From Alphaproteobacteria bacterium (GTDB taxonomy: Bacteria; Pseudomonadota; Alphaproteobacteria; Rs-D84; SZUA-605), in assembly GCA_031549385.1 (NCBI GenBank), contig JAVBPW010000001.1, forward strand, positions 390,661 through 454,660: DNA of 64,000 bases. The letters are read 5' to 3'. The translations under genes were made by a program, and so were the position numbers. Below, one piece after another: positions 1,426-28,553 of the stretch (position 1 is its first letter; each line of letters opens with the position of its first letter). Below the pieces are notes generated by a model. The model ran no database searches, had not been told where the DNA came from, and was given only the letters and a program-made list of their open reading frames with translations.

Positions 1426-1970
1426 CCTTTTAAACCTAGCTGATAAATTTTTTCTAACATTTTTAATCTTTTTTCTTGGCTTACAAATTGTACACTGTAA
1501 AGAGGTGTTCTTTTTGCCTTAAATCCACAAAATTTAAAAATATGTCTGTTTAAACATTTCCATGTTACAAAGCCTGTTATTAATTGGTAAATCCAAGGTC
1601 CATTTAATGTATAAATAAAACGTACAGTTTTACCTTTCATTAATTTTGCTGGAATCATTCCTTTTCCATATTTGAAAAATACTCCGTGAACTATTGTTTT
1701 GTCTATCCAACCTTTGAATAAAGCAGGAACTGTGCCCCACCAAATAGGACTTTCAATTACTATATGGTCAGCCCATAAAAACCATTTTTGATGTTCTTGT
1801 ATGACTGGTTCAACCATCATGTTGCTGTTTGCAAGTGGGTCGAATTTTGTATCACGTAAAACTATTTTATTTACTTTGTTTTCTTTTTTTGCACCTTTTT
1901 CATAAGCTTCTATTAAGGCTTGTCCGAATGAGCCATGGAATGGGTGGGTGTCTATAATCAGTATATTCAT
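1419..1970 (-). CDS. Flavodoxin-like-fold NAD(P)H dehydrogenase (quinone), KefF/MdaB/general stress protein 14-like
   Basis: 'MNILIIDTHPFHGSFGQALIEAYEKGAKKENKVNKIVLRDTKFDPL' has the N-terminal flavodoxin_2 pattern, with ...WWGTVPALFKGWIDK downstream. AAGGAG RBS on the minus strand at 1977-1982. Confidence 0.6.
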   Translation of the reverse strand: MNILIIDTHPFHGSFGQALIEAYEKGAKKENKVNKIVLRDTKFDPLANSNMMVEPVIQEHQKWFLWADHIVIESPIWWGTVPALFKGWIDKTIVHGVFFKYGKGMIPAKLMKGKTVRFIYTLNGPWIYQLITGFVTWKCLNRHIFKFCGFKAKRTPLYSVQFVSQEKRLKMLEKIYQLGLKGK

Positions 1971-1990
1971 AATTTATCTCCTTGGGGGTA

Positions 1991-2115
1991 CGTTGAATTT
2001 TGGTTACGATTCAAAAGGATTTAAAATTTAAAGACGCATCACGTAGCCATATGTACGCTCAGGTCTTAAAATTTTAAATACTTTCGTTCTCACTCAAAAT
2101 TGAACGACCAATGAT
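1991..2115. repeat. MITE-like intergenic palindromic repeat, copy A (subfamily 1)
   Basis: Terminal inverted repeats CGTTGAATTTTGG...CTCAAAATTGAACG. Internal long hairpin with arms TTTAAAATTTAAAGAC/GTCTTAAAATTTTAAA around the palindromic core CGTAGCCATATGTACG. About 70% identical to copy F. Confidence 0.7.
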
Positions 2116-2242
2116 TTAATATCATTTTAATTATATCAAATTTTTGAATCCTTTACAATATGACAATATTCTCTTAAAAAAGATTGCAAAATTGTTATTT
2201 TTTTTCTATTATTGACCTTTGAATAAAAAAAGGAAAAAGACT

Positions 2243-5200
2243 ATGGCATATCCAAAAACTAATGTATCTGTAAACTTTGTAGAAATAGAAAAAAATATCC
2301 AAAAATTTTGGGAAGATAATAAGATTTTTATGAAGTCAATTGATATTAGAAATGGAGCAGAGGATTTTGTGTTCTTTGATGGACCTCCTACTGGTAATGG
2401 TTTGCCTCATTATGGACATTTGGCAGTGTCTGCTATGAAAGATTGCGTTTGTCGTTATAAGACTATGCAAGGGTACCGAGTTATTAGAAATTTTGGTTGG
2501 GATTGTCATGGACTTCCTGTTGAAATAGAAGTTTGTAAAGAACGTGGACTTGCTGATAGAGATGCTATTTTATCTTATGGTATAGAAAAGTTTAACGGCG
2601 AATGTAAAAAAGATGTTATGAAATATCGTTCTATTTGGGTTGATACTTTAAATAGAGTTGGCAGATGGGGTAACTTTGATGCTGAATATAAGACTATGGA
2701 TTTTTCTTATATGGAATCTGTTATGTGGGCTATTTCTGAGCTTTATAAAAATGATTTACTTTATCAAGGTTATAAAGTTATGGCTTATTCTTATGGAGCT
2801 GAAACATCACTTTCTAATTCAGAAGCTAAGATGGAATATAAGGATAAAGTTGATCCTGCTATTACTGTTGCTTTTAAATTAAAAGATGATTTCTTAAGTA
2901 AGGAAACTCATGTTCTTGTTTGGACTACTACACCTTGGACACTTTGCACTAATTTAGCTTTGGTTGTTGGAAAGGATATTGATTATTCTGTTATGGAAGA
3001 AGATGGAACACAATATATTCTTGCTTCTGCTTTGGTTGCTAATTATAAAAAACAATTAGAAAATGCTACTCTTGTTAAAACTATTAAAGGTTCGGATTTA
3101 TTAGGTAAAGAATATGTGCCTATGTTTGATTATTATGCTCATCTTGAATTTAATAACGCTTTTAAAATCTATGATGCTGATTTTGTTTCAATAACTGATG
3201 GAACTGGAATTGTGCATATGGCTCCTTATGGAGAAGATGACTTTGAAGTTTTAAAGAAAAATAGTATTCCTGTTGTTTCTCCAGTTGACGGAAAAGGTTT
3301 GTTTAATTCAGAAGTTAAAGATTATGCTGGTATGCTTGTTTTTGATGCATCAGAAAAAATTATTCAAGATTTAAAAGAAAGAGGAGTGTTGATAAAAAAA
3401 GAAAACTATACTCACTCTTATCCTTATTGTTGGAGAACTAAAACTCCACTTATTTATAGACCTATGGAATCTTGGTTTGTGAATGTGGAAAAAATAAAAC
3501 AAAATATTATTGATGAAAACAAAGAAATAACTTGGGTGCCTGAACATCTTCGTGATGGACGTTTTGGTAAATGGTTAGAGGGTGCTAAAGATTGGGGTAT
3601 TTCAAGAAATCGTTTTTGGGGATGTCCGCTTCCTATTTGGGTAAGTGATAATCCTGATTTCAAAAGAATTGATGTTTTTGGATCATACGAAGAAATTGAA
3701 AAAGTTTCTGGTCAAAAAATTAGTGATCCACATAAACCTTTTATAGATGAAATTACTTATAAAAATCCTGATGATCCTTCTGGAAAAACTTTGATGAAGA
3801 GAATTCCTGATGTTTTGGATTGTTGGTTTGAAAGTGGAGCTATGCCTTTTGCTGCTCTTCATTATCCGTTCGAAAACAAAGAATTGTTTGAGGAAAGATT
3901 CCCTGCTGACTTTATTGTCGAAGGACAAGACCAAACACGTGGATGGTTTTATACTTTGATGGTGCTTGCTGTTGCATTATTTGGAAAGAAAGCATTTAAG
4001 GTTTGTATGGTTAATGGATTGGTTTTAAATGTTGAAAAGAAAAAACTTTCTAAATCAGAAAAGAATTATGTTTCACCTGATGTATTATTTGAAAGTTTAG
4101 GGGCTGAAGCTTTTAGATGGTATATGCTTAGTTCACCTTTGTTTAAAGCTGAATCTGTGGCATTTGATGAAAAGTTAACTGCTAAGGCTATGAGAGATGC
4201 TTTGATACCTTTATGGAATAGCTATCACTTCTTTACACTTTATGCTAATGCTGATAATGTTGATGCAAAAGAAATTGTAACTTCTTCAAATGTACTTGAT
4301 AGATATATTTTAGCAAAACTTAAAAAATTGTCTGTTGATGTTAAATCTAATATAGATAATTGGTCAGTTGATAAAGCATGTGTTAAAATTGTTGATTTCT
4401 TAGACGTTTTAAATAATTGGTATATCAGACGTTCTCGTGATAGATTCTGGGGGACTGGAATAACTAAAGAAATGTCAATGGAGGCGTTTAATACTCTTTA
4501 CACTGTACTTGTTAATGTGTGTAAAACTATTGCTCCTATTATGCCTCATGTGTCAGAATTTATTTATAAAAATTTAACTAATGAAGAAAGTGTGCATTTA
4601 GTTTTATGGCCAGATTTATCAACAATAGCTGATGAAGATGATTTGATTAAGGCTATGGATCAAGTGCAAGATGTTTGCAGATGTGGTAAATTTATACGTG
4701 AAGAAGAAAGTTTGCGTAACAGATTGCCTCTTGCTTCTGCTACTGTGGTTGGAATCGAATTGGAAGATTATTCTGATGTTATTGCTGATGAGTTAAATGT
4801 TAAAAAAGTTATATTCGATAAAAATCTTCCTCAGTATGCTGATAAGTTTTTGTATTTGATTACTCCTAAGATTGGGGAACGCTTAGGTGGAGCTTTAAAA
4901 GATATTATTCCTGCTTCTAAAAAAAGTGAATATAAACTTGCTAATGGAAAGTGTATTGTTGCTGGGTTTGAATTGAATAATGATGAATTCGAAGAAAGAC
5001 TTGTTTTGAAAAATGGAGTGCATGGAAAAGCATTATCTGATAACAGTGCTGTTGTTATGCTTGATTTAGTTGTTACTCCTGAATTGAAAAAAGAAGGAAT
5101 GGTTCGTGATTTTGTTAGAGCTGTTGCTGATGAAAGAAAAGAAATAGGTTTGGAAGTTACTGACAGAATTAAGCTTTATTATGAAACAGATAATAACGAA

Positions 5201-5338
5201 GTTATAGATGCTTTTAATACTTATTCAGGATATATAAAAGAACAAGTTCTTGCAGAAGTTTTTGAGAAAAATAAGATGGCTAAAAAAGAAGTTTTATTAG
5301 GAGATGTTAAAATATATTTATATTTAACTAAAAATTAG
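2243..5338 (+). CDS. ileS: Isoleucyl-tRNA synthetase, type 2 (eukaryote-like)
   Basis: HYGH motif ('PPTGNGLPHYGHL') and KMSKS motif ('KKLSKSEKN'). The ORF-track start at 2219 is TTG; ATG at 2243 is preceded by an AAGGAAA RBS. Confidence 0.95.
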   Translation: MAYPKTNVSVNFVEIEKNIQKFWEDNKIFMKSIDIRNGAEDFVFFDGPPTGNGLPHYGHLAVSAMKDCVCRYKTMQGYRVIRNFGWDCHGLPVEIEVCKERGLADRDAILSYGIEKFNGECKKDVMKYRSIWVDTLNRVGRWGNFDAEYKTMDFSYMESVMWAISELYKNDLLYQGYKVMAYSYGAETSLSNSEAKMEYKDKVDPAITVAFKLKDDFLSKETHVLVWTTTPWTLCTNLALVVGKDIDYSVMEEDGTQYILASALVANYKKQLENATLVKTIKGSDLLGKEYVPMFDYYAHLEFNNAFKIYDADFVSITDGTGIVHMAPYGEDDFEVLKKNSIPVVSPVDGKGLFNSEVKDYAGMLVFDASEKIIQDLKERGVLIKKENYTHSYPYCWRTKTPLIYRPMESWFVNVEKIKQNIIDENKEITWVPEHLRDGRFGKWLEGAKDWGISRNRFWGCPLPIWVSDNPDFKRIDVFGSYEEIEKVSGQKISDPHKPFIDEITYKNPDDPSGKTLMKRIPDVLDCWFESGAMPFAALHYPFENKELFEERFPADFIVEGQDQTRGWFYTLMVLAVALFGKKAFKVCMVNGLVLNVEKKKLSKSEKNYVSPDVLFESLGAEAFRWYMLSSPLFKAESVAFDEKLTAKAMRDALIPLWNSYHFFTLYANADNVDAKEIVTSSNVLDRYILAKLKKLSVDVKSNIDNWSVDKACVKIVDFLDVLNNWYIRRSRDRFWGTGITKEMSMEAFNTLYTVLVNVCKTIAPIMPHVSEFIYKNLTNEESVHLVLWPDLSTIADEDDLIKAMDQVQDVCRCGKFIREEESLRNRLPLASATVVGIELEDYSDVIADELNVKKVIFDKNLPQYADKFLYLITPKIGERLGGALKDIIPASKKSEYKLANGKCIVAGFELNNDEFEERLVLKNGVHGKALSDNSAVVMLDLVVTPELKKEGMVRDFVRAVADERKEIGLEVTDRIKLYYETDNNEVIDAFNTYSGYIKEQVLAEVFEKNKMAKKEVLLGDVKIYLYLTKN

Positions 5339-5419
5339 TAATTTACCTGATAAAAAACCTCTTGTGTTGATGTTAAAATTATGGTATATTTAATACATCA
5401 ATAAAAAGAGAGGAAAATT

Positions 5420-5917
5420 ATGATAAAAGTTTCTTACGTTATTTTAGCATCTGTTTTGCTAGTATCTGGCTTTGCAGAAGCACAAAGAACAAATGATGGT
5501 ACAGCTTCACGTGCTGGAGTTAGCCGTTTAAATACTGGTGTTGCAAAACCTGCAGCGTCATCTGAAATCAGACCTGCTATTGCTAAACCGACTGTTGCTA
5601 CTGCAGTGAAACCTGTGGAAGCTCAAAAAGTTACTGAAATTGTAGAACCTGTTAAAACTACTGCTATTATAGAAGATACAGAATTAATCAAAAAGAAACA
5701 GGAAGAGTTGGCTAATAAGCAAGCTTTGAAAGAACAATTAGAACTTGAAATCTCTCAAATAGAATCTGAACAAAAACGTTGCGATAAGCAAAAGAAGAAC
5801 TGGACTATTGCAACAGTTGCTGGGTCTGTGGGAACAGTTGCTGGTACTGTGGGTGCTGTTATTCAAGGTAAAGACTTAAAAGAAAAGAAAGAAACACTTA
5901 ACGAGTTAAAGAATTAA
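5420..5917 (+). CDS. Secreted coiled-coil protein with a C-terminal glycine-zipper helix (paralog family member 1)
   Basis: Signal peptide ...SGFAEAQ. N-terminal 'AQRTN..SRAGVSR' is like that of the 731-aa protein. Coiled coil present. C-terminus 'KRCDKQKK..TVAGSVGTVAGTVGAVIQG'. Confidence 0.7.
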   Translation: MIKVSYVILASVLLVSGFAEAQRTNDGTASRAGVSRLNTGVAKPAASSEIRPAIAKPTVATAVKPVEAQKVTEIVEPVKTTAIIEDTELIKKKQEELANKQALKEQLELEISQIESEQKRCDKQKKNWTIATVAGSVGTVAGTVGAVIQGKDLKEKKETLNELKN

Positions 5918-13957: not shown

Positions 13958-14503
13958 ATGGATAAATTAATTAGTAGGGATAAGTTCCCTTTGATGTGTA
14001 TGGTGTTTGCACAAATACCTGAGGTATATTGGTCCGTTTATAAAAAAGGCGTTTACACTTTAAATATTGGCTTTCGACAGTTTGCAAACTGTTTTGACTA
14101 TGAAATAACTGAGGTTGTAAATGACTTTGAGAAACTTACTATATCTGACCTTAAAAGTTGGTACAAAGTTTTTCAAAAAATTGAAGAGGTTGAAGAAATT
14201 GATGTTGATGGAACTACTTTTAGGAAATTTAAAATAGGAAGCGATTTTTTCTATTTTAGGAAATTGTGGCGAAATGTTTTCCTTTTTGCTGTTCCATATT
14301 GCAAATGCTGCCAGCCGGATACTCAATCTGAAGCTTTTAAGACTTCTAATAAACGGCTTAAGTATGAAAGGCTTCGTACTTCTTCATATATGTATGGAGA
14401 TTTTGTGTATGAACATACATCAACAACTTGTCGGAATAGTCCTGTTGGAGGACGAGGGACTAGTTTTTTGGTGGTACGACACAGTTCGTATCATTGTCCG
14501 TAA
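13958..14503 (+). CDS. Hypothetical protein; coding status uncertain, 3' third compositionally atypical (GC-rich, Cys/Arg-rich)
   Basis: 181-aa ORF ending at a plus-strand intrinsic terminator. No recognisable motifs. The GC-rich 14280-14500 stretch was scanned for tmRNA, RNase P and SRP signatures without a match. Confidence 0.3.
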   Translation: MDKLISRDKFPLMCMVFAQIPEVYWSVYKKGVYTLNIGFRQFANCFDYEITEVVNDFEKLTISDLKSWYKVFQKIEEVEEIDVDGTTFRKFKIGSDFFYFRKLWRNVFLFAVPYCKCCQPDTQSEAFKTSNKRLKYERLRTSSYMYGDFVYEHTSTTCRNSPVGGRGTSFLVVRHSSYHCP

Positions 14504-16151: not shown

Positions 16152-16706
16152 ATGTTAACAAGAGATGCAATATTGCAACAAGTCATGTTGGGTAATATAG
16201 TTATTACTCCATTTGATGAAAAATGCATTGGAAGCAATTCGTATGATTTGCATCTTTATAAGATGCTTAAGGTTTACGATTGTGCTGAGCTGGATTGCCG
16301 GAAGCAAAATCCTACTATTGAATTTGAAATTCCCGAAGAAGGGTTTGTTTTACAGCCGGGTATTTTATACTTGGGAAGTACTATTGAGTATACTGAAACA
16401 GACTTGCATATTCCGGAAATCAATGGGAAATCTTCCCTCGGCCGGTTGGGGTTGGATATTCATAAGACTGCTGGGTTTGGCGACCTTGGTTTTAGAGGTC
16501 AATGGACTTTGGAAATGGTGGTTGTTCTTCCTCTTCGAATTTACCCTGGTCAGAAGATTGCACAATTGCAATTTGATGTTCCGGTGGGGCCTATTACACA
16601 TTTGTATAGGAATAAACCCGATCAGAAGTATGCAAACCAATCTGGTCCGACGGCTTCAAAAATGCATGAAAACTTTTCAAATGCGGAAAGTAATGGTTTA
16701 GGTTGA
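16152..16706 (+). CDS. dcd: dCTP deaminase
   Basis: 'GKSSLGRLGLDIHKTAGFGDLGFRGQWTLEMV...PGQKIAQLQF' matches Dcd/dUTPase-fold motifs. The gene is noticeably GC-richer than its flanks. Confidence 0.85.
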   Translation: MLTRDAILQQVMLGNIVITPFDEKCIGSNSYDLHLYKMLKVYDCAELDCRKQNPTIEFEIPEEGFVLQPGILYLGSTIEYTETDLHIPEINGKSSLGRLGLDIHKTAGFGDLGFRGQWTLEMVVVLPLRIYPGQKIAQLQFDVPVGPITHLYRNKPDQKYANQSGPTASKMHENFSNAESNGLG

Positions 16707-16731
16707 TTGAAAAATCAACCTATTTTTTTAT
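16701..16731 (+). terminator. Intrinsic terminator (GGTTGATT-GAAA-AATCAACC plus T-run)
   Basis: Perfect 8-bp stem followed by TATTTTTTTATT. Confidence 0.6.
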
Positions 16732-17468
16732 TCTTCGTCATCCATATCTACATCAAAACTTGATGTGTCATTCTTTTTATCTGATTTATATAAATCATTT
16801 ATTTCATAATAACTGTTTTGTTGGTACATTGATTTTGAGGCTTCGTAGAAGTCTATACTTTGCTTTTTCAAGCTTTCTACCGTTTCATAGCTTCTTGCAT
16901 ATGATGTGAATAAGTCTGAGCCTGTTAATACTGTTTCAACAAAAAATGATTTTGGTATTAAGATTGTTGGATCAAGTATTGCATTTAATCCCATTGCAAC
17001 AAAGTCTCTTGTATTTGTTGGTCTTATGAATGGAACTGCTAGATAAGGACCATCTGCTACATTCCACTTTCCAAGTGTTTGGTTGAATCTTTGGCGGTGT
17101 CTTTGAAGGCCTATTTGATCTGCTATTTCAAATGTTCCTGCGAATCCTAGTGTTGAGTTTATTGCAAATCTAGCTACTGTCTTTCCACTTTCTATGAATT
17201 GCAATTGCAAAATGTTATTTACAAAAGTTAGTGGCTCTTCTAAATTTTTAAAGAAATTATTTATGTTATATTGGAATGTTTCTGGGACTATATACAAATA
17301 TCCTCTTACTACTGGGTCTAAAAATGTTTCTTCCATATACATGTTAAATGCAAAAACTTTACGGTTTGTTTTTTCATATGGGTCGTATGTATTATCTGGT
17401 TGAGTTGCAGCACAACCTGATAATATTGAAATAAAAGTTACCAAAGAAAATAGTTTTTTAATTTTCAT
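16728..17468 (-). CDS. mlaA: MlaA/VacJ outer-membrane lipoprotein
   Basis: Lipobox '...ILSGCAAT'. Conserved MlaA core ('FAINSTLGFAGTFEIADQIGL', 'GPYLAVPFIRPTNTRD'). Confidence 0.85.
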   Translation of the reverse strand: MKIKKLFSLVTFISILSGCAATQPDNTYDPYEKTNRKVFAFNMYMEETFLDPVVRGYLYIVPETFQYNINNFFKNLEEPLTFVNNILQLQFIESGKTVARFAINSTLGFAGTFEIADQIGLQRHRQRFNQTLGKWNVADGPYLAVPFIRPTNTRDFVAMGLNAILDPTILIPKSFFVETVLTGSDLFTSYARSYETVESLKKQSIDFYEASKSMYQQNSYYEINDLYKSDKKNDTSSFDVDMDDEE

Positions 17469-17527
17469 TTTATTAATTATAGAAAATATTTCTTAAATTT
17501 CAAAGGTTTTTATGGTATAAGTGGTTT

Positions 17528-18211
17528 ATGATATCTGTTGAATATATAAAAAAGATTTTTGATAAAACTGTTCCTTGTGTTTTACATAAGGATGATGATA
17601 AGGCATCGGCTGCCAAATTATGCAAGACTGCTATTGATATGGATTTCAAAAAACTTTGTGTAAAACAATCTTTATATGATTTTACTTTTAATTGTTTGGA
17701 TAGAAAAGGTAAAGACTTAGCTTTGTACCTTGTTGGAAAGTCTATTGGTGATATGCAAAAAAATATTTTAATGTACAAAGATTATAATGTTAAAAATATA
17801 TTTGTGATGTTTGATAAAGAAGTTATAGAGCTTTCTGATATTGATTCTGTGTTTGGTGAATTAAAAGGTGTGTTTGAATTATCTAAGATTGTTTTTTGTA
17901 TCAGGTCCGATGATTTTATTTTGTTTGATGATATTGGAAAATTTGTACAAAAATTGAAAAGCTATGGAATAAAGAAAATTAATATTATTGAGAGGGGTCA
18001 TAAAATTACTATCTCTGCTTATGATTATTTGAAATATTTGCATGATGAAAATTTGAGTGTGGTTCTTTATTTTACTCCAGATGTTTATGATGATGCCGAA
18101 CTAATTTATCGAATTTATGAAAGTAAGCGAATCGTAAATCCTAATCAAAAGATTTATTTCTGCTTTCCTTTGAGTATGGCTATTACTCGTAATATTACTT
18201 TGGTAGAATAG
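17528..18211 (+). CDS. Hypothetical cytoplasmic protein (possible degenerate DeoC-like TIM-barrel; weak)
   Basis: 227 aa, no signal peptide or TM helix. 'HKDDDKASAAKLCKTAIDMDFKKLCV' loosely recalls the DeoC N-terminus. Confidence 0.4.
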   Translation: MISVEYIKKIFDKTVPCVLHKDDDKASAAKLCKTAIDMDFKKLCVKQSLYDFTFNCLDRKGKDLALYLVGKSIGDMQKNILMYKDYNVKNIFVMFDKEVIELSDIDSVFGELKGVFELSKIVFCIRSDDFILFDDIGKFVQKLKSYGIKKINIIERGHKITISAYDYLKYLHDENLSVVLYFTPDVYDDAELIYRIYESKRIVNPNQKIYFCFPLSMAITRNITLVE

Positions 18212-18306
18212 GTTAATGTTCCTATTGACATAATTAAACTTATGTCATATTAGGAAATAATAGAACAATAATGTTTTAAGTTAATAAATATATAAATTTC
18301 TAAATA

Positions 18307-18567
18307 ATGGGTAAAAAAGTTCCACATGAGAATGGTGGTGATGCCACTTGGTCTCAAGTTATTAATAATGCTGAAAGGTGGTTAGGAGATGATTCTCGCC
18401 AATCTGATGATAATAAGTCTCAAGTTTCTGCAGATGGAACAAGAGCTATTCGTATGGGAGATCATGAAACAAAAACAGATACACCTCATGTACATTTTGA
18501 AGTACGTGCTGAAGATGGGGTAACTGTTATCGCTGATAATCGGGTTAATATAACCAGTTATGATTGA
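18307..18567 (+). CDS. Small GC-rich ORF with an M23-peptidase-like 'PHVHFEVR' zinc-ligand motif (fragment, or minimal toxin-like domain)
   Basis: 86 aa. 'TKTDTPHVHFEVRAEDGVTVIADNRVN' versus M23 'TGxSTGPHLHFEVRxNGxxVNP'. Lacks a canonical HxxxD motif and a signal peptide. GC clearly above local background. Confidence 0.4.
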   Translation: MGKKVPHENGGDATWSQVINNAERWLGDDSRQSDDNKSQVSADGTRAIRMGDHETKTDTPHVHFEVRAEDGVTVIADNRVNITSYD

Positions 18568-18932
18568 TTTTTGAGGGGGAGTTTTTCCCCTTCATTAATA
18601 TAGGAGTTAAAATGGGGTATGTTCAAAAAAGATCTGAAAAGTTTTATTTAGATAAGTCTAAAGATGAGTATATTGTTTTATTTAAAGGGTATAATGATGA
18701 TCCTGTTGATGGCAATATTCATTATTTGTTTGAATATTATTATGAGGGTAGAATAGAAGGTGATAGTTTTATTGCTGAAAGAAAACTAAATGATAAACTA
18801 TATAAGTTTGGAGCTAAAATAAATTCAGCATTAAATTTAAATGATTTAATTTATGGTATAATTAAATTTGCTATGGACACATATGAGGTTCATATAGACA
18901 GAAATGATATTATAGATTTTGTTGAATTTTAA
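18564..18932 (+). CDS. Small acidic hypothetical protein, overlapping the previous ORF by 4 nt (immunity-like partner?)
   Basis: 122 aa, no signal or TM. ATGA overlap suggests translational coupling. Confidence 0.4.
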   Translation: MIFEGEFFPFINIGVKMGYVQKRSEKFYLDKSKDEYIVLFKGYNDDPVDGNIHYLFEYYYEGRIEGDSFIAERKLNDKLYKFGAKINSALNLNDLIYGIIKFAMDTYEVHIDRNDIIDFVEF

Positions 18933-18933
18933 C

Positions 18934-20439
18934 CTATTTTTTCTTTTCACTTTTTTTCACAATGTTTAAAACAAAAGTTATTCCAAGCAATAATACACAA
19001 AATATAAATAATGGGATTTGCTTGGTTACTGAGTAAATGGTTGCATATCCTCTGTCTGGAATTTTAAAGTCTATTATTCCTGATGTGTTTAATGGAAGAG
19101 ATTTTAAAATTCTTCCGTTTGAATCTATTACTGCTGATATTCCATTATAGCCTGCGCGAATCACTGGTTTGCCTTCTTCGATGGCTCTTAGTTGTGCTTC
19201 TACTAAATGTTGATATGGGCCACGTGATAAGCCATACCATGCATCATTAGTTAATATAAGTATGAAGTTTGGGTTGGTGTTCTTTTGAACTACTTGGCCT
19301 GAGAATATTCCTTCATAACAAATTAATGGTGAGAATGAAAAGCCGTCTGCTGTTATTGTTTCTAATCCTTCACCTGGTGTTAAATCAGTTAATTGATTTG
19401 TTATTGTTTTCATTGGGATATATTTTTTAAATGGAATGTATTCGCCAAACGGAACTAAATGTGATTTTGCATAGGTGGCTATTACTCCACTTTTGTTAAA
19501 TAAGCCCACCATATTAAATAGTTTTCCAGAATTGTCTGCATGAGGGAAGCCTGTAATTAAATAATTATTTTCATTTAATATTGAAGTTGCTAATGTTCTT
19601 GCAGTTGTTGCATTGATTAAATCATATGAAACTGCTGTTTCTGACCAGATTATGAAGTCTGCTTTTTCACCTTGTTTAGAGAATTCTAAATGAGTTAGAA
19701 AATTTCTTTCTACTTCTTCTGGTTTCCATTTTAATTTTTGTTGGATTCCTGGTTGAACTATTTTTACTGTTTGGTCTGTTAGTTTTATTGGTCTGATTGT
19801 TATGGTGTTTATTACCATTAATCCCATTACAGCAAGAGAAGTAAAACCTATTAATGAAGAAATAGATTTTTTGTTTTGTTGAAAGTTAAATATTAAATAT
19901 ACAAAACAGCCTAATAGTATTGTTAGGAATGTTAGACCGTTTGTTCCTATGATTGATGCGCTTTGTAGAATGTAGTTATAGTCTGACCAGATTGCGCCTA
20001 TTTTATTCCATGGGAAGCCTGTTAGTAAACATTCACGCAATATTTCTAGAATAGTAAATGATGATGTGAATATTAAAACTTTTGAAAGGGAGTTTTTACC
20101 AAAGTAGGCTAATAATGATGGAATTGCAAAGAATAAACCAAAGACTATACCAACACCTGCATAGAAAAATGGAATTAGCCAACTGAAGGTGTCTATTGTA
20201 AATTCGTCTATTAGTAATGCGTTTGTTATCCATGATAGACCAAATACAAAATGTGAGAATCCAAAAATATATCCATAAAGAAATGCTTGTTTTTTGTTTT
20301 GTGCATTAAATACTATGAATGTGAAGATTATGAATGGTATGAAAAATGCTGGTAAAAAGTTGTTTGGAGCGAATCCATGGTTTGATATAAATCCTTTTAG
20401 AGCTAGGGCTATGTATTTTAAAATTTCTTTTATCTTCAT
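18934..20439 (-). CDS. lnt: Apolipoprotein N-acyltransferase
   Basis: N-terminal multi-TM region plus C-terminal CN-hydrolase domain ('LICYEGIFSGQ'). Confidence 0.9.
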   Translation of the reverse strand: MKIKEILKYIALALKGFISNHGFAPNNFLPAFFIPFIIFTFIVFNAQNKKQAFLYGYIFGFSHFVFGLSWITNALLIDEFTIDTFSWLIPFFYAGVGIVFGLFFAIPSLLAYFGKNSLSKVLIFTSSFTILEILRECLLTGFPWNKIGAIWSDYNYILQSASIIGTNGLTFLTILLGCFVYLIFNFQQNKKSISSLIGFTSLAVMGLMVINTITIRPIKLTDQTVKIVQPGIQQKLKWKPEEVERNFLTHLEFSKQGEKADFIIWSETAVSYDLINATTARTLATSILNENNYLITGFPHADNSGKLFNMVGLFNKSGVIATYAKSHLVPFGEYIPFKKYIPMKTITNQLTDLTPGEGLETITADGFSFSPLICYEGIFSGQVVQKNTNPNFILILTNDAWYGLSRGPYQHLVEAQLRAIEEGKPVIRAGYNGISAVIDSNGRILKSLPLNTSGIIDFKIPDRGYATIYSVTKQIPLFIFCVLLLGITFVLNIVKKSEKKK

Positions 20440-22428: not shown

Positions 22429-24624
22429 ATGAATAAAAAGTTTTTTATAGGATTGGGCGTTTTAGTAGTTGTTTTAGGTTTTAGTGCTAATGCTTATGCT
22501 CAACGTGCTAATACATCTGCAGCTGTGAAAAAACAACAAACTGGTAGAGCAGGAGTTGCACGAGCAGGAATTACACGTATAACAACTGTTGCGACAAAAG
22601 TTCCAACAAGTGGTGGTACAACTACAGATACAACAACTGATGATACAAAATTAGATTCACTTGCTTGTTCAAAAGCTTTTTATAATAAACTTGTTGAAAG
22701 TGGAGTTTGTGGGGGAGCCAACTTATCTACATGTAATGCTGATTTCAAAGTTTCTTTGATGAATGGGGATTATACAGCTTTTATGGCAAGTAAAGGTTAT
22801 ATAGCTCAAACAGTATTTACAAATTGTGATTGTGGAACTGACAGTGCTGGAACTGCTTTGGATTGTAAGAAGGTTGCTGCTATGTATGTTGGTTCTGTTA
22901 TGACTGATGGAATTATTAAAGATTATTATTCTTGCCAAAGAAGTTTTAATTCTTGTGCTAATGCAGTTTGTGGAACTGATTATGCTAATTGTGCTGATCT
23001 GTTAACAGAAAAAACTTATCCAACTGATGGAGTTGAATCTGCTCAAGCTATTTCTAGAGAATTAGAAAAGTTATTAGGTGAATTAAACTCAGGTAGTGCT
23101 TATGCTTCTACTATTTCAGGAGTTGGTACAAGACTTCAAAAAAGATTAGGAGAATGTCGCGCTAATATCTTAGATAAGTGTGAAATCGCTTCTGCTGATG
23201 GTACTTCTGATAATGCTACAAGAAGACAAGAAATCTTTGATGAATATAGAGATGGATTAATCAGAAATGGTTCAAAAGCTTTGATTGCTCGTTATGGTAA
23301 TGATGCTAAGAAAAGTATTATGGATGCATATTCATGTGTTGATTCAGTTGATGCTTGTATGAAAAAACAATGTGGAAGTGACTATAACAAATGTTTAAAT
23401 GATGACTTTACAGTTAATACTTCTGCTGTAAATAACTTCAAATCACTTTGCCAACAAGATCTTATTTCTTGTGCTGAAGTAAGAGCATTGGCTCAGTTAG
23501 AGGGATACCAATACTTAGCTGATGTTAAGGTTGACGGTGTTGCTCAAGTATGGAATGATTTTATTACAAACAGAGTGCTTGCTTATGCTAATGCAAAAGC
23601 TGTGGATCGTAAGAAATTAGAAGAAAAATTAGAAAATCTATTATCATTTGCTCAAAAGAGCTGTCAAGATAATGGTGGTGTAGTTCAATTTATCCAAGAA
23701 AAATTGGCTATCTACGACGCAAAATATGGTACATCACGTACAAACGATCAGGTTGCTAATGATACTGGATTGTTTGGAACTACTACAGTTGATGGTGATT
23801 TAGAATATTCAACAACTGCAAATGATGGAGCTCGTAAAGGGGATAGATTTTATAACAAAATGGTTTGTGCGTTCCCGTTAACAGGAAACAAAGATGCTAA
23901 TTCAAATATGCCAAAAATCATATTAATGGGTGAAAGCAAGGTTTGTGATGCTACATTCTTTGATGTTGATAAAAAAGCTGGTGGAAGAATTGTAGGTTCT
24001 ATCGTTGGTGCTGGAGTTGGTACTGCTGCTGGATTGTTGACAAGTGGTGCATTGAAGAAAGACCCATCAAAAGATATTGCTGATATTAACATAGCTATTC
24101 TTAAAGTAGAAGAATGTATAGCAGCAAAAGATGATGTTAATAAATATGATAAACTTAGAGAAGAAGCAGCTAATTTAGTTAATAAGGCTGGTGTTATGGT
24201 AACTGTTGATAATGCTTGTGATTCTGGAACAAAAGCGAGTTTGACTAAAAAGTTAGATCAAGGTGGTGGAAAATTAATTGAAAATCAAAAAGCTCAAAAT
24301 GCTGTACTTGGTACTGCTGGTGGGTTAGCTCTTGGTGCTGCTGGATTTGGTGTTGGTTCTGCTATTGATAAAAAGAATGCTGAAAAGAAACAAGATGAAT
24401 TGAAGTGTGTTGTTGGTGGAAAACAATATGCAATTGGAGAAACAATTACTGTTGCAAGAAGCTCAGCTTTCAGAGAACTTGAAGATTTCTATCAACAAAA
24501 TCCTAACTTGTTGGCAGAAAGAGGTGAATACATCAATTCTAAGTACAGAGGTGAATCTGTAGTTGCTGGACCTCAAGGAGATCAGAAAGATAGCAATATT
24601 AAGAATGAAAGTTTATTCCAATAA
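22429..24624 (+). CDS. Large secreted Cys-rich protein (731 aa) carrying two glycine-zipper helices of the 5.4-8.1 kb family
   Basis: Signal peptide ...ANAYAQR. N-terminus 'AQRAN..TGRAGVARAGITR' resembles the 5420 protein. About 30 Cys in paired CxnC spacing. 'GGRIVGSIVGAGVGTAAGLLTSGALKK' and 'NAVLGTAGGLALGAAGFGVGSAIDKK'. Strong RBS. Confidence 0.75.
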   Translation: MNKKFFIGLGVLVVVLGFSANAYAQRANTSAAVKKQQTGRAGVARAGITRITTVATKVPTSGGTTTDTTTDDTKLDSLACSKAFYNKLVESGVCGGANLSTCNADFKVSLMNGDYTAFMASKGYIAQTVFTNCDCGTDSAGTALDCKKVAAMYVGSVMTDGIIKDYYSCQRSFNSCANAVCGTDYANCADLLTEKTYPTDGVESAQAISRELEKLLGELNSGSAYASTISGVGTRLQKRLGECRANILDKCEIASADGTSDNATRRQEIFDEYRDGLIRNGSKALIARYGNDAKKSIMDAYSCVDSVDACMKKQCGSDYNKCLNDDFTVNTSAVNNFKSLCQQDLISCAEVRALAQLEGYQYLADVKVDGVAQVWNDFITNRVLAYANAKAVDRKKLEEKLENLLSFAQKSCQDNGGVVQFIQEKLAIYDAKYGTSRTNDQVANDTGLFGTTTVDGDLEYSTTANDGARKGDRFYNKMVCAFPLTGNKDANSNMPKIILMGESKVCDATFFDVDKKAGGRIVGSIVGAGVGTAAGLLTSGALKKDPSKDIADINIAILKVEECIAAKDDVNKYDKLREEAANLVNKAGVMVTVDNACDSGTKASLTKKLDQGGGKLIENQKAQNAVLGTAGGLALGAAGFGVGSAIDKKNAEKKQDELKCVVGGKQYAIGETITVARSSAFRELEDFYQQNPNLLAERGEYINSKYRGESVVAGPQGDQKDSNIKNESLFQ

Positions 24625-27557: not shown

Positions 27558-28553
27558 ATGAAGAAATTTTTAATACTATTTTCTGTATGCTTTATGGCAA
27601 TTAGCAGCTCTTATGCTGGATTGCTTGATTGGTTTTCAAGTGATGAAGATTATACTACTACTATTGCTGATTATACAGGGGAACCTGATGTTAGAGTTGT
27701 TAGTGCTGAAGAACGATATGAACTTGATAGTTATCAAGTGCCTTTTTATGTGAAAGAAGAACCTTATGCTGTGCCTGAAGTGAAAACTCCTCCTGTTCTT
27801 TGGGGAAAAGATGATCTTTATTACCCTTATCAATTAGAACCACATGTTTCTAAAAAATCATTTCAACAAGTAACTGCTCAGCGACCTTTTGCTCAAACAG
27901 CACAAAATGTTACTGTGGTTTGTAGAAAGGCTGGGTGTACTCGTCTTAATGATAAAGTTACACGTCAATTCTTATTCAGTAACTTATTAAATGTATTTAT
28001 TAATAATAAATTTACACAAGTTAGTATGTGTGAAGCTGATCCTAATTCACGAGCTTGTTTGTCTAATTCAATCCGTTTTGGTGGAAGAGTTGGTGGAACT
28101 GCTTCTTTAATTCAAATTTATTCTGCTTATGTAGCTGATTTGCGTTTTACTAAATCTATGAATAAATTGGATATTTATTTGATGTATAATGTTTATATTA
28201 ATGGTGTTAAATCACAATGTAGTGGCGCTTTGACTGCAGTTGAAGTTTTTTCTAATGACCAAGTTATTATGAGAGATGAAAGTTATAAATGCCAATTGAC
28301 TTCTGGTGTACCTACAACAGTGTTTTCTATGTTCAATGTTGATTATATCGACCTTGATTATGGTTTGATCGGTGGATATTATTCTATTGGTCTTTCTGGT
28401 GAATCTGCAGCTGGTGGAAATGGTTATGTTTTAATGAAATTTACTAAAAACACTAGGAATTCAGCTTTCAGAGAAAATCCAAAAGATGGTGAAGGGTTTG
28501 CTGGATACGAAGTTCCTGCTGGTGAATATGAAGTTAGACCTTTAGCAGAATAA
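27558..28553 (+). CDS. Secreted hypothetical protein (331 aa)
   Basis: Signal peptide 'MKKFLILFSVCFMAISSSYAG'. No recognisable domain. Confidence 0.6.
   Translation: MKKFLILFSVCFMAISSSYAGLLDWFSSDEDYTTTIADYTGEPDVRVVSAEERYELDSYQVPFYVKEEPYAVPEVKTPPVLWGKDDLYYPYQLEPHVSKKSFQQVTAQRPFAQTAQNVTVVCRKAGCTRLNDKVTRQFLFSNLLNVFINNKFTQVSMCEADPNSRACLSNSIRFGGRVGGTASLIQIYSAYVADLRFTKSMNKLDIYLMYNVYINGVKSQCSGALTAVEVFSNDQVIMRDESYKCQLTSGVPTTVFSMFNVDYIDLDYGLIGGYYSIGLSGESAAGGNGYVLMKFTKNTRNSAFRENPKDGEGFAGYEVPAGEYEVRPLAE

Follow-up and report, generated by a model that had tools for sequence, protein, structure and literature searches.

The 64,000-nucleotide (nt) stretch of DNA analyzed here (the window; positions 390,661 to 454,660 of contig JAVBPW010000001.1 of the alphaproteobacterial genome GCA_031549385.1) encodes an open reading frame (ORF) of 86 amino acids (aa) at positions 18307 to 18567 of the forward strand. 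It is almost certain that this ORF is homologous to the toxin domains that form the C-terminal tips of Rhs proteins, polymorphic toxins with which bacteria fight one another. The explanation that we favor, and consider likely as a whole, is that it is an orphan Rhs-toxin tip with a predicted BECR-like fold, probably of an RNase family, that cannot be delivered and is probably attenuated, and that the acidic ORF behind it is possibly its antidote. The original prediction, made from the sequence alone, pointed out that the end of the ORF resembles the zinc-ligand block of M23/LytM peptidases, and offered two explanations: a peptidase remnant, or a minimal C-terminal domain of the type found at the tips of polymorphic toxins. 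The architecture and homologues of the family strongly support the second.

A word-indexed search returned the ORF itself and one relative, the 150-aa protein P0002, which is 47% identical over the domain. A profile of these two sequences was used for an exhaustive HMMER search of 1.84 billion representative proteins and identified 634 proteins at E ≤ 1e-3, including 137 at E ≤ 1e-10. The ORF scores 65 bits against a hidden Markov model (HMM) of the family that was built without it, thus the family assignment is not circular, and as judged from sequence the similarity is far beyond chance. One matched protein, P0091 (747 aa), is repetitive, with 11 matched stretches that cover profile positions 4-37 only. 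It is a repeat-driven false positive and was left out of the family alignments.

In the best 150 of the 634 proteins, the domain is placed at the extreme C-terminus, with a median of 2 residues to the protein end in hosts of 76-2682 aa. RHS/YD repeats occur in all 15 longer members that were scanned (509-2682 aa), and Rhs_assc_core (TIGR03696) in five of the six long members also scanned against NCBIfam. Individual long members carry PT-TG (P0064), PT-HINT (P0137) and DUF6531. C-terminal placement combined with delivery modules is the pattern classically seen in the C-terminal domains of polymorphic toxins. The toxin domain itself is matched by no Pfam or NCBIfam model in the family members scanned. 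The family signature is S-x-D..R..R...PHVHFE...EN, and the subfamily nearest the window protein has the consensus RAPEF.GG...SPGRYVSADG.RQVRYG.HE...H.HFE..ENT.

A scan of one genome per species located the domain at 69 genomic loci from at least 12 phyla, including Gamma- and Alphaproteobacteria, Planctomycetota, Acidobacteriota, Nitrospirota, Chloroflexota, Actinomycetota (many Streptomyces), Myxococcota, Verrucomicrobiota, Bdellovibrionota, Gemmatimonadota, Elusimicrobia and a lineage of the Candidate Phyla Radiation (CPR). In the Bacillota, the domain forms the end of a very large DNRLRE domain-containing protein encoded on plasmid pE73 of Exiguobacterium alkaliphilum (locus L105, 1-4010). 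This is a mobilizable Gram-positive plasmid, on which the toxin domain is followed by two hypothetical ORFs of 136 and 132 aa. Free-standing copies shorter than 130 aa with a complete 5' end make up about 10 of the 69 genomic loci, and several of the shorter family genes examined (under ~370 aa) sit downstream of an Rhs gene.

Most of the 69 genomic loci also encode a small ORF on the same strand, 3' of the toxin at about -30 to +70 nt. Sixty of 68 genomic downstream ORFs form one BLAST-connected family, to which 30 of 31 metagenomic downstream ORFs also belong (33 loci, identified in a scan with the nearest subfamily). Combined, a gene of this family lies directly 3' of the toxin in ~90 of 99 relatives (~91%). 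The encoded proteins are 72-127 aa long (median 91 aa), have a median isoelectric point (pI) of 4.66 and share the motif G-x-Y-L-x-x...DTWH...QA..EF...W. Examples are found at 5252-5536 of locus L008 from Pelagibacterium halotolerans, 5258-5536 of L026 from Stenotrophomonas and 2778-3047 of L088. No Pfam or NCBIfam model matches this DTWH family. It has the look of an immunity family that goes with the Rhs toxin family, both of them uncurated. At canonical loci, the Rhs shell would deliver the ~85-residue domain into neighboring cells, and the producer would be protected by the small acidic DTWH protein encoded directly downstream. The toxin family is unnamed and lies outside Pfam and NCBIfam, and the toxin/immunity pair is uncurated. 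Given the size of the group (at least 634 clusters at 50% identity, at least 12 phyla), profiles for both families would improve the annotation of many Rhs loci.

In the window, three forward-strand ORFs are located between mlaA and lnt: one of 227 aa, the 86-aa ORF, and one that ends at 18932. The unknown 227-aa gene and the two flanking genes on the opposite strand are arranged as was first described. The features of the locus are as follows.

16728-17468, reverse strand: mlaA, which borders the three-ORF block on the left (PF04333 is recorded for the identical gene).
17528-18211, forward strand: 227-aa orphan ORF, upstream of the toxin ORF on the same strand.
18307-18567, forward strand: 86-aa ORF, a free-standing homologue of the Rhs-associated C-terminal toxin domain.
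18484-18501, forward strand: codons of P60-H61-V62-H63-F64-E65, the signature strand of the toxin family and the core of the M23-like string.
18564-18611, forward strand: stretch that, with a TTG start, would extend the N-terminus of the next ORF to give the 122-aa reading, an alternative considered unlikely.
18572-18594, forward strand: hairpin with a 9-bp stem (UGAGGGGGA / UCCCCUUCA) and a 5-nt loop, located after the stop codon of the toxin and ahead of the next ribosome-binding site.
18602-18606, forward strand: AGGAG Shine-Dalgarno sequence, 5 nt 5' of the ATG at 18612, read from the sequence.
18612-18932, forward strand: 106-aa acidic ORF in the position of an immunity gene, with the start of the recorded gene call.
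18934-20439, reverse strand: lnt (apolipoprotein N-acyltransferase), the right flank (PF20154, LNT_N, and PF00795, CN_hydrolase, are recorded on the identical contig).

The 86-aa ORF has the C-terminal end that drew attention to it, TKTDTPHVHFEVRAEDGVTVIADNRVNITSYD (also given as TPHVHFEVRAEDGVTVIADNRVNITSYD). Its likeness to M23/LytM peptidases (PF01551) consists of a His-x-His on a β-strand followed by Phe-Glu, a match of 6 to 8 residues to the M23 block PHLHFEVR. M23 and LytM proteins also have an HxxxD zinc motif upstream of the HxH. As had already been recognized, HxxxD is absent from the ORF, which contains only HxxxxD spacings (H7..D12 and H53..D58). No Pfam, NCBIfam, PADLOC or PHROGs entry, PF01551 included, matches the ORF at E ≤ 10. 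In the toxin family, PF01551 matches none of 63 members at E ≤ 1, and none of the 63 has a meaningful Pfam match. A search of the PDB with the two-sequence profile found one M23 chain (9gy1_A, E = 1.1, 25 residues), and this match was lost when the 63-sequence profile was used. There are no LytM-type folds or M23 proteins among the structural neighbors of the AlphaFold2 (AF2) model, which has a different predicted fold. Within the toxin family only the PHxHFE portion of the string is conserved; V66 and R67 are specific to the window copy, and the 634 homologues are toxin tips. We therefore rejected as scarcely credible a pseudogene fragment of an M23/LytM metallopeptidase, a lipoprotein in which PHVHFEVR would survive as the HxH zinc block. 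The lack of an M23 profile match had been named at the outset as an outcome that would refute this reading. The resemblance is coincidental, and a PHxHFEVR string is insufficient for an M23 call.

The possibility of an SH2-like phosphotyrosine-binding effector domain is equally faint. SH2-like effector domains are known from some intracellular bacteria, and the PDB searches gave weak matches to the N-SH2 domain of p85-alpha over NAERWLG..SR...ADGT..R (E values of 1.5 and 0.04). These were lost with the 63-sequence profile, no SH2 fold occurs among the structural neighbors, and the family context is that of Rhs toxins with immunity genes. This candidate was also rejected.

The AF2 model of the toxin domain, based on the 63-sequence alignment, has a predicted local distance difference test (pLDDT) score of 92.2 and a predicted template modeling (pTM) score of 0.81. 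The elements are ordered β1, α1 and five more β-strands. A short helical turn separates the fourth strand from the fifth. BECR is an RNase-type fold. The predicted α/β fold is closest to the C-terminal toxin domain (CT) of CdiA from E. coli A0 34/86 (5T86), which ranked second in Foldseek (probability 0.80, TM 0.51; 16% identity in the structural alignment). A viral fold library gave no match to the model. The 5T86 CdiA-CT has been described as having a BECR fold (bioRxiv 10.64898/2026.05.10.723254). Residues S41, R49, H61 and E65 are invariant in the family, and D43, R46, Q47, H63, F64, E76 and N77 are nearly so; across 63 to 148 family sequences, H61 and E65 remained invariant and H63 and F64 were at least 90% conserved. 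These residues would fit a metal-independent RNase active site, an activity predicted from general knowledge of BECR proteins and microbial RNases. The window copy keeps S41, D43, R46, R49, H61, H63, F64 and E65.

The 86-aa ORF begins ~8 residues before the G-N-x-x-G-G boundary of the family and encodes no delivery or pre-toxin region. An in-frame stop codon lies two codons 5' of its ATG. An N-terminal hydrophobic segment is absent from the sequence, thus there is no signal peptide, in agreement with the earlier view that the protein lacks a secretion signal. The N-terminal regions of family members longer than 130 aa and five Rhs bodies were compared with the window, and no Rhs body, pre-toxin region or N-terminal homology was found upstream of the ORF or elsewhere in the 64 kb. 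A search for a disrupted N-terminal part 5' of 18307 had been suggested, and no match to the N-terminal regions of relatives was found in 17400-18306. The 227-aa ORF was considered as the lost N-terminal part of the toxin and was rejected, as it lacks similarity to the N-terminal regions of longer members. Also rejected was P0100 as a parallel to the three-part layout, because it is an Rhs C-terminal fragment that is unrelated to the 227-aa and 106-aa ORFs. Given that no delivery part, pre-toxin module, signal peptide or Rhs gene is encoded in the 64 kb, we infer that the window copy is not exportable as an Rhs effector. If active, it would act only inside the cell that produces it.

The nucleotide composition bears on the history of this copy. 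The GC content of the window is 30.6% and that of the 86-aa ORF is 38% (z +2.05 over 51 genes), a value reached by 4.6% of 261-nt windows. The report of a markedly GC-richer ORF is thus correct as to the total (38% vs a mean of 31%), with the qualification that the excess is found in the first two codon positions only. GC at the first codon position (GC1) is 0.581, above that of all 51 genes in the window, and GC2 is 0.419. GC3 is 0.151 (z -0.70), which is typical of the genome. The ORF is rich in Asp, Arg, His, Gly and Thr and poor in Leu, Phe, Tyr and Lys, and the dcd and kdsA-type genes of the window equal it in GC-richness. Because the excess is confined to positions 1 and 2, it reflects amino acid composition rather than foreign or recently imported DNA; high GC in a small ORF need not mean a foreign origin. 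High GC1 and GC2, equilibrated GC3, retention of the core residues and an open frame argue for constraint rather than free decay. The chance that 86 codons would stay open at the local intergenic composition is 4.7e-4. These compositional data argue that the window copy has long been retained as an intact coding sequence, the GC3 of which is fully adapted to the AT-rich genome.

Several observations weigh against an orphan toxin tip that is retained under constraint together with an antidote. Low GC3 could stem from an AT-rich donor, in which case long residence would be unproven. Of the 20 columns with conservation of at least 85%, 8 are changed in the window copy (L19I, Y30S, E32Q, G36N, Q47A, F48I, E76A and N77D), whereas the other sequences have a median of 1 change and at most 5. 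Three hydrophobic positions of the hairpin at residues 28-40 have been replaced by Ser, and in hydrophilicity the copy lies at the extreme end of the family range (grand average of hydropathy -1.03). The confidence of the AF2 model is driven by the alignment, and the window copy may be inactive or poorly folded. The toxin whose fold comes closest, 5T86, is without a mechanistic paper (bioRxiv 10.64898/2026.05.10.723254). Inspection of the sequence revealed no recognizable ribosome-binding site before the ATG of the 86-aa ORF. The remaining points concern the 106-aa ORF. It was the only sequence returned by its own database search, with no homologues. Comparison with the DTWH family gave an hhalign probability of 0.5%, and its score of 0.4 bits against the immunity HMM was equaled or exceeded by 227 of 2000 shuffled sequences. 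A single-sequence AF2 model is unusable (pLDDT 48.5). A role as a lineage-specific antidote, for which it may be a candidate, is based on position, size and charge only.

Some of these points would be expected if the ORF were the dead relic of an ancient Rhs toxin/immunity insertion that by chance is still open, with the 106-aa and 227-aa ORFs unrelated or spurious. Among the 145 sequences compared, none is as diverged as the window copy, which scores 65 bits (family median, 124), and its altered conserved columns include E76 and N77. The strongly hydrophilic character of the protein is consistent with a relic, as are the lack of a ribosome-binding site and the absence from the window of a canonical immunity gene, a delivery domain and an Rhs gene, and both neighboring ORFs are orphans without homologues. 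However, the frame is unbroken; it opens with an ATG at the domain boundary and closes with a stop codon just past the domain end, and 86 open codons would have a chance of ~5e-4 under the local composition. GC3 has equilibrated but GC1 and GC2 greatly exceed the genome values, a contrast that neutral decay would have leveled out. The four invariant residues (S41, R49, H61, E65) and the near-invariant D43, R46, H63 and F64 are retained, and the 106-aa ORF combines a strong AGGAG with a β-rich sequence as in folded proteins. We consider a dead relic to be a rather unlikely, though serious, explanation. In the orphan toxin tip that we favor, the activity is probably weakened or changed, as this copy is the most diverged member of the family.

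The proposed pairing with the downstream gene was based in part on an ATGA overlap between the two ORFs. This overlap is not present. The ATG at 18560 is out of frame and opens a 4-codon ORF in a different frame, and the 122-aa reading of the downstream gene begins with a TTG at 18564, which overlaps the stop codon of the toxin as TTGA. This start is unlikely because the stretch that follows encodes the hairpin, lacks a ribosome-binding site, and is not included in the recorded gene call, which starts at 18612. Most likely, translation starts at ATG 18612 to yield 106 aa, after a gap of 44 nt. The hairpin at 18572-18594 has no T-tract 3' of it, and terminator calling gave no terminator there. 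Folding in an 81-nt context gave a z of -1.5, which is not significant. The hairpin is G/C-rich and could have an effect on coupling or mRNA stability.

As had been predicted, the downstream product is acidic (pI 4.83). Its position, size and charge match an immunity protein, and to this extent the proposed toxin/immunity layout is upheld; the translational coupling is unreal, and the 106-aa ORF is outside the immunity family. On the basis of the hhalign probability and of the HMM score, which shuffled sequences also reach, we rejected the idea that the 106-aa ORF encodes a canonical immunity protein. It has no match in Pfam, NCBIfam, PADLOC or the PDB, and a six-frame translation of the 64-kb window revealed neither a canonical immunity gene nor a second copy of the toxin domain. 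A minority of toxin relatives (L038, L062 and Exiguobacterium pE73) are also followed by non-canonical ORFs, thus a non-homologous antidote is possible. Neither of the two downstream ORFs of pE73 belongs to the DTWH family, and the 106-aa ORF has no similarity to the non-canonical ORFs of L038 and pE73. At L038, from a metagenome-assembled genome of Pseudobdellovibrionaceae, a 91-aa copy of the toxin has its own ATG near the domain boundary and is followed by a non-canonical ORF, also of 106 aa. It is part of a cassette array (1641-3391) in which a 221-aa ORF and a 79-aa partner precede the toxin copy. This array is the closest analogue of the window layout. In the orphan toxin tip, the 106-aa ORF with its strong AGGAG may replace the canonical immunity gene as a non-homologous antidote, and the pair would then be toxin-antitoxin-like.

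A bolder extension of this idea is that the warhead has been domesticated. A free-standing, sequence-shifted Rhs tip of long residence and a de novo, non-homologous acidic partner that took the place of the DTWH protein would then constitute an intracellular toxin-antidote module or a host-directed effector. We regard this as unlikely. If true, the module would have a role in addiction, stress or phage defense in an AT-rich lineage without sequenced close relatives.

Alternatively, the copy could be a recombination reservoir for a full-length rhs gene or another polymorphic-toxin gene, or the protein could be exported by another route, for example to a host cell. According to a review (PMC9086364), orphan CT/immunity modules are toxic on expression and may serve as substrates for locus reorganization. 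Several family genes under ~370 aa are directly 3' of an Rhs gene in other genomes, and the 64-kb window covers only part of a contig that is at least 455 kb long. However, the upstream region contains no Rhs-like sequence or pre-toxin homology at which recombination could occur, the neighborhood is one of housekeeping genes, a signal peptide is absent, and the copy is strongly diverged. Thus, we consider a reservoir or an exported effector very unlikely.

Orphan toxin tips have clear precedents. Classical orphan Rhs-CT/RhsI and CdiA-CT/CdiI cassettes form arrays beside full-length rhs or cdiA (Poole et al., 2011, summarized in PMC9086364), and they keep part of the upstream conserved region, usually without a start codon (PMC9086364). 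The window copy resembles them in that the toxin domain is detached from a delivery protein and followed by a small acidic ORF on the same strand, and its relatives occur as cassettes 3' of Rhs genes. Unlike them, it is alone between mlaA and lnt, has its own ATG at the domain boundary, keeps no upstream homology and lacks the immunity gene of the family. The CdiA-CT/CdiI pair of E. coli A0 34/86 differs in that a profile search of the PDB finds no sequence similarity to 5T86, and in its delivery by CdiA via a type V secretion system (T5SS), whereas the relatives of the window domain are delivered by Rhs proteins. Rhs2-SciX of Salmonella Typhimurium has a different spacing of its reported catalytic residues (D192...H204, H208, R224 vs S-x-D...R-x-x-R...H-x-H-F-E, compared by inspection only). 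SciX is CdiI-like and ~150 aa long vs 75-120 aa for the DTWH family (bioRxiv 10.64898/2026.05.10.723254).

Toxins of type II toxin-antitoxin (TA) systems with RelE/BECR folds are similar in being ~90-aa cytoplasmic α/β proteins with candidate catalytic Arg, His and Glu residues and an acidic partner, and the window protein, like them, can act only in the producing cell. However, the partner has no recognizable DNA-binding domain, and the relatives of the toxin are exported Rhs tips. No type II TA family in Pfam, NCBIfam or PADLOC matches the 86-aa or the 106-aa ORF. Objects of this kind are already well known and orphan toxin cassettes occur commonly, which makes the find a fairly ordinary one that opens no new kind of biology. 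Mildly new are the uncurated toxin/immunity family and a copy that stands alone with its own start codon and lacks the cognate immunity gene. A warhead that persists alone among housekeeping genes bears on how toxin tips are lost, tamed and re-used.

The surrounding genes encode housekeeping functions that include IleRS, IF-2, SecDF and FabF. The 227-aa ORF has no homologue among 5.8 billion proteins, of which it matches only itself, and has no Pfam, NCBIfam or PDB match; no link to the toxin was detected. Other ORFs without a Pfam domain, in addition to this one (17528-18211), are located at 22429-24624 (731 aa), 13958-14503 (181 aa) and 27558-28553 (331 aa). A scan of species representatives in GTDB with Lnt identified no relative of this lineage. 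Four local proteins that were looked up are singleton clusters, and Lnt is a singleton at 90% identity. The orphan ORFs and the singleton Lnt suggest a lineage without sequenced close relatives. No Rfam family, tRNA families included, reached its gathering score in 1-64000, a result that was obtained with Rfam models only, with no dedicated tRNA finder run. The most GC-rich stretch nearby is a 184-aa ORF at 16152-16706 on the forward strand, which encodes a dCTP deaminase (PDB 2qxx, E = 9e-27). At this site the gene call recorded for the identical contig is instead a 152-aa ORF without a Pfam domain, which overlaps it in another frame (16243-16701) and is probably a mis-annotation.

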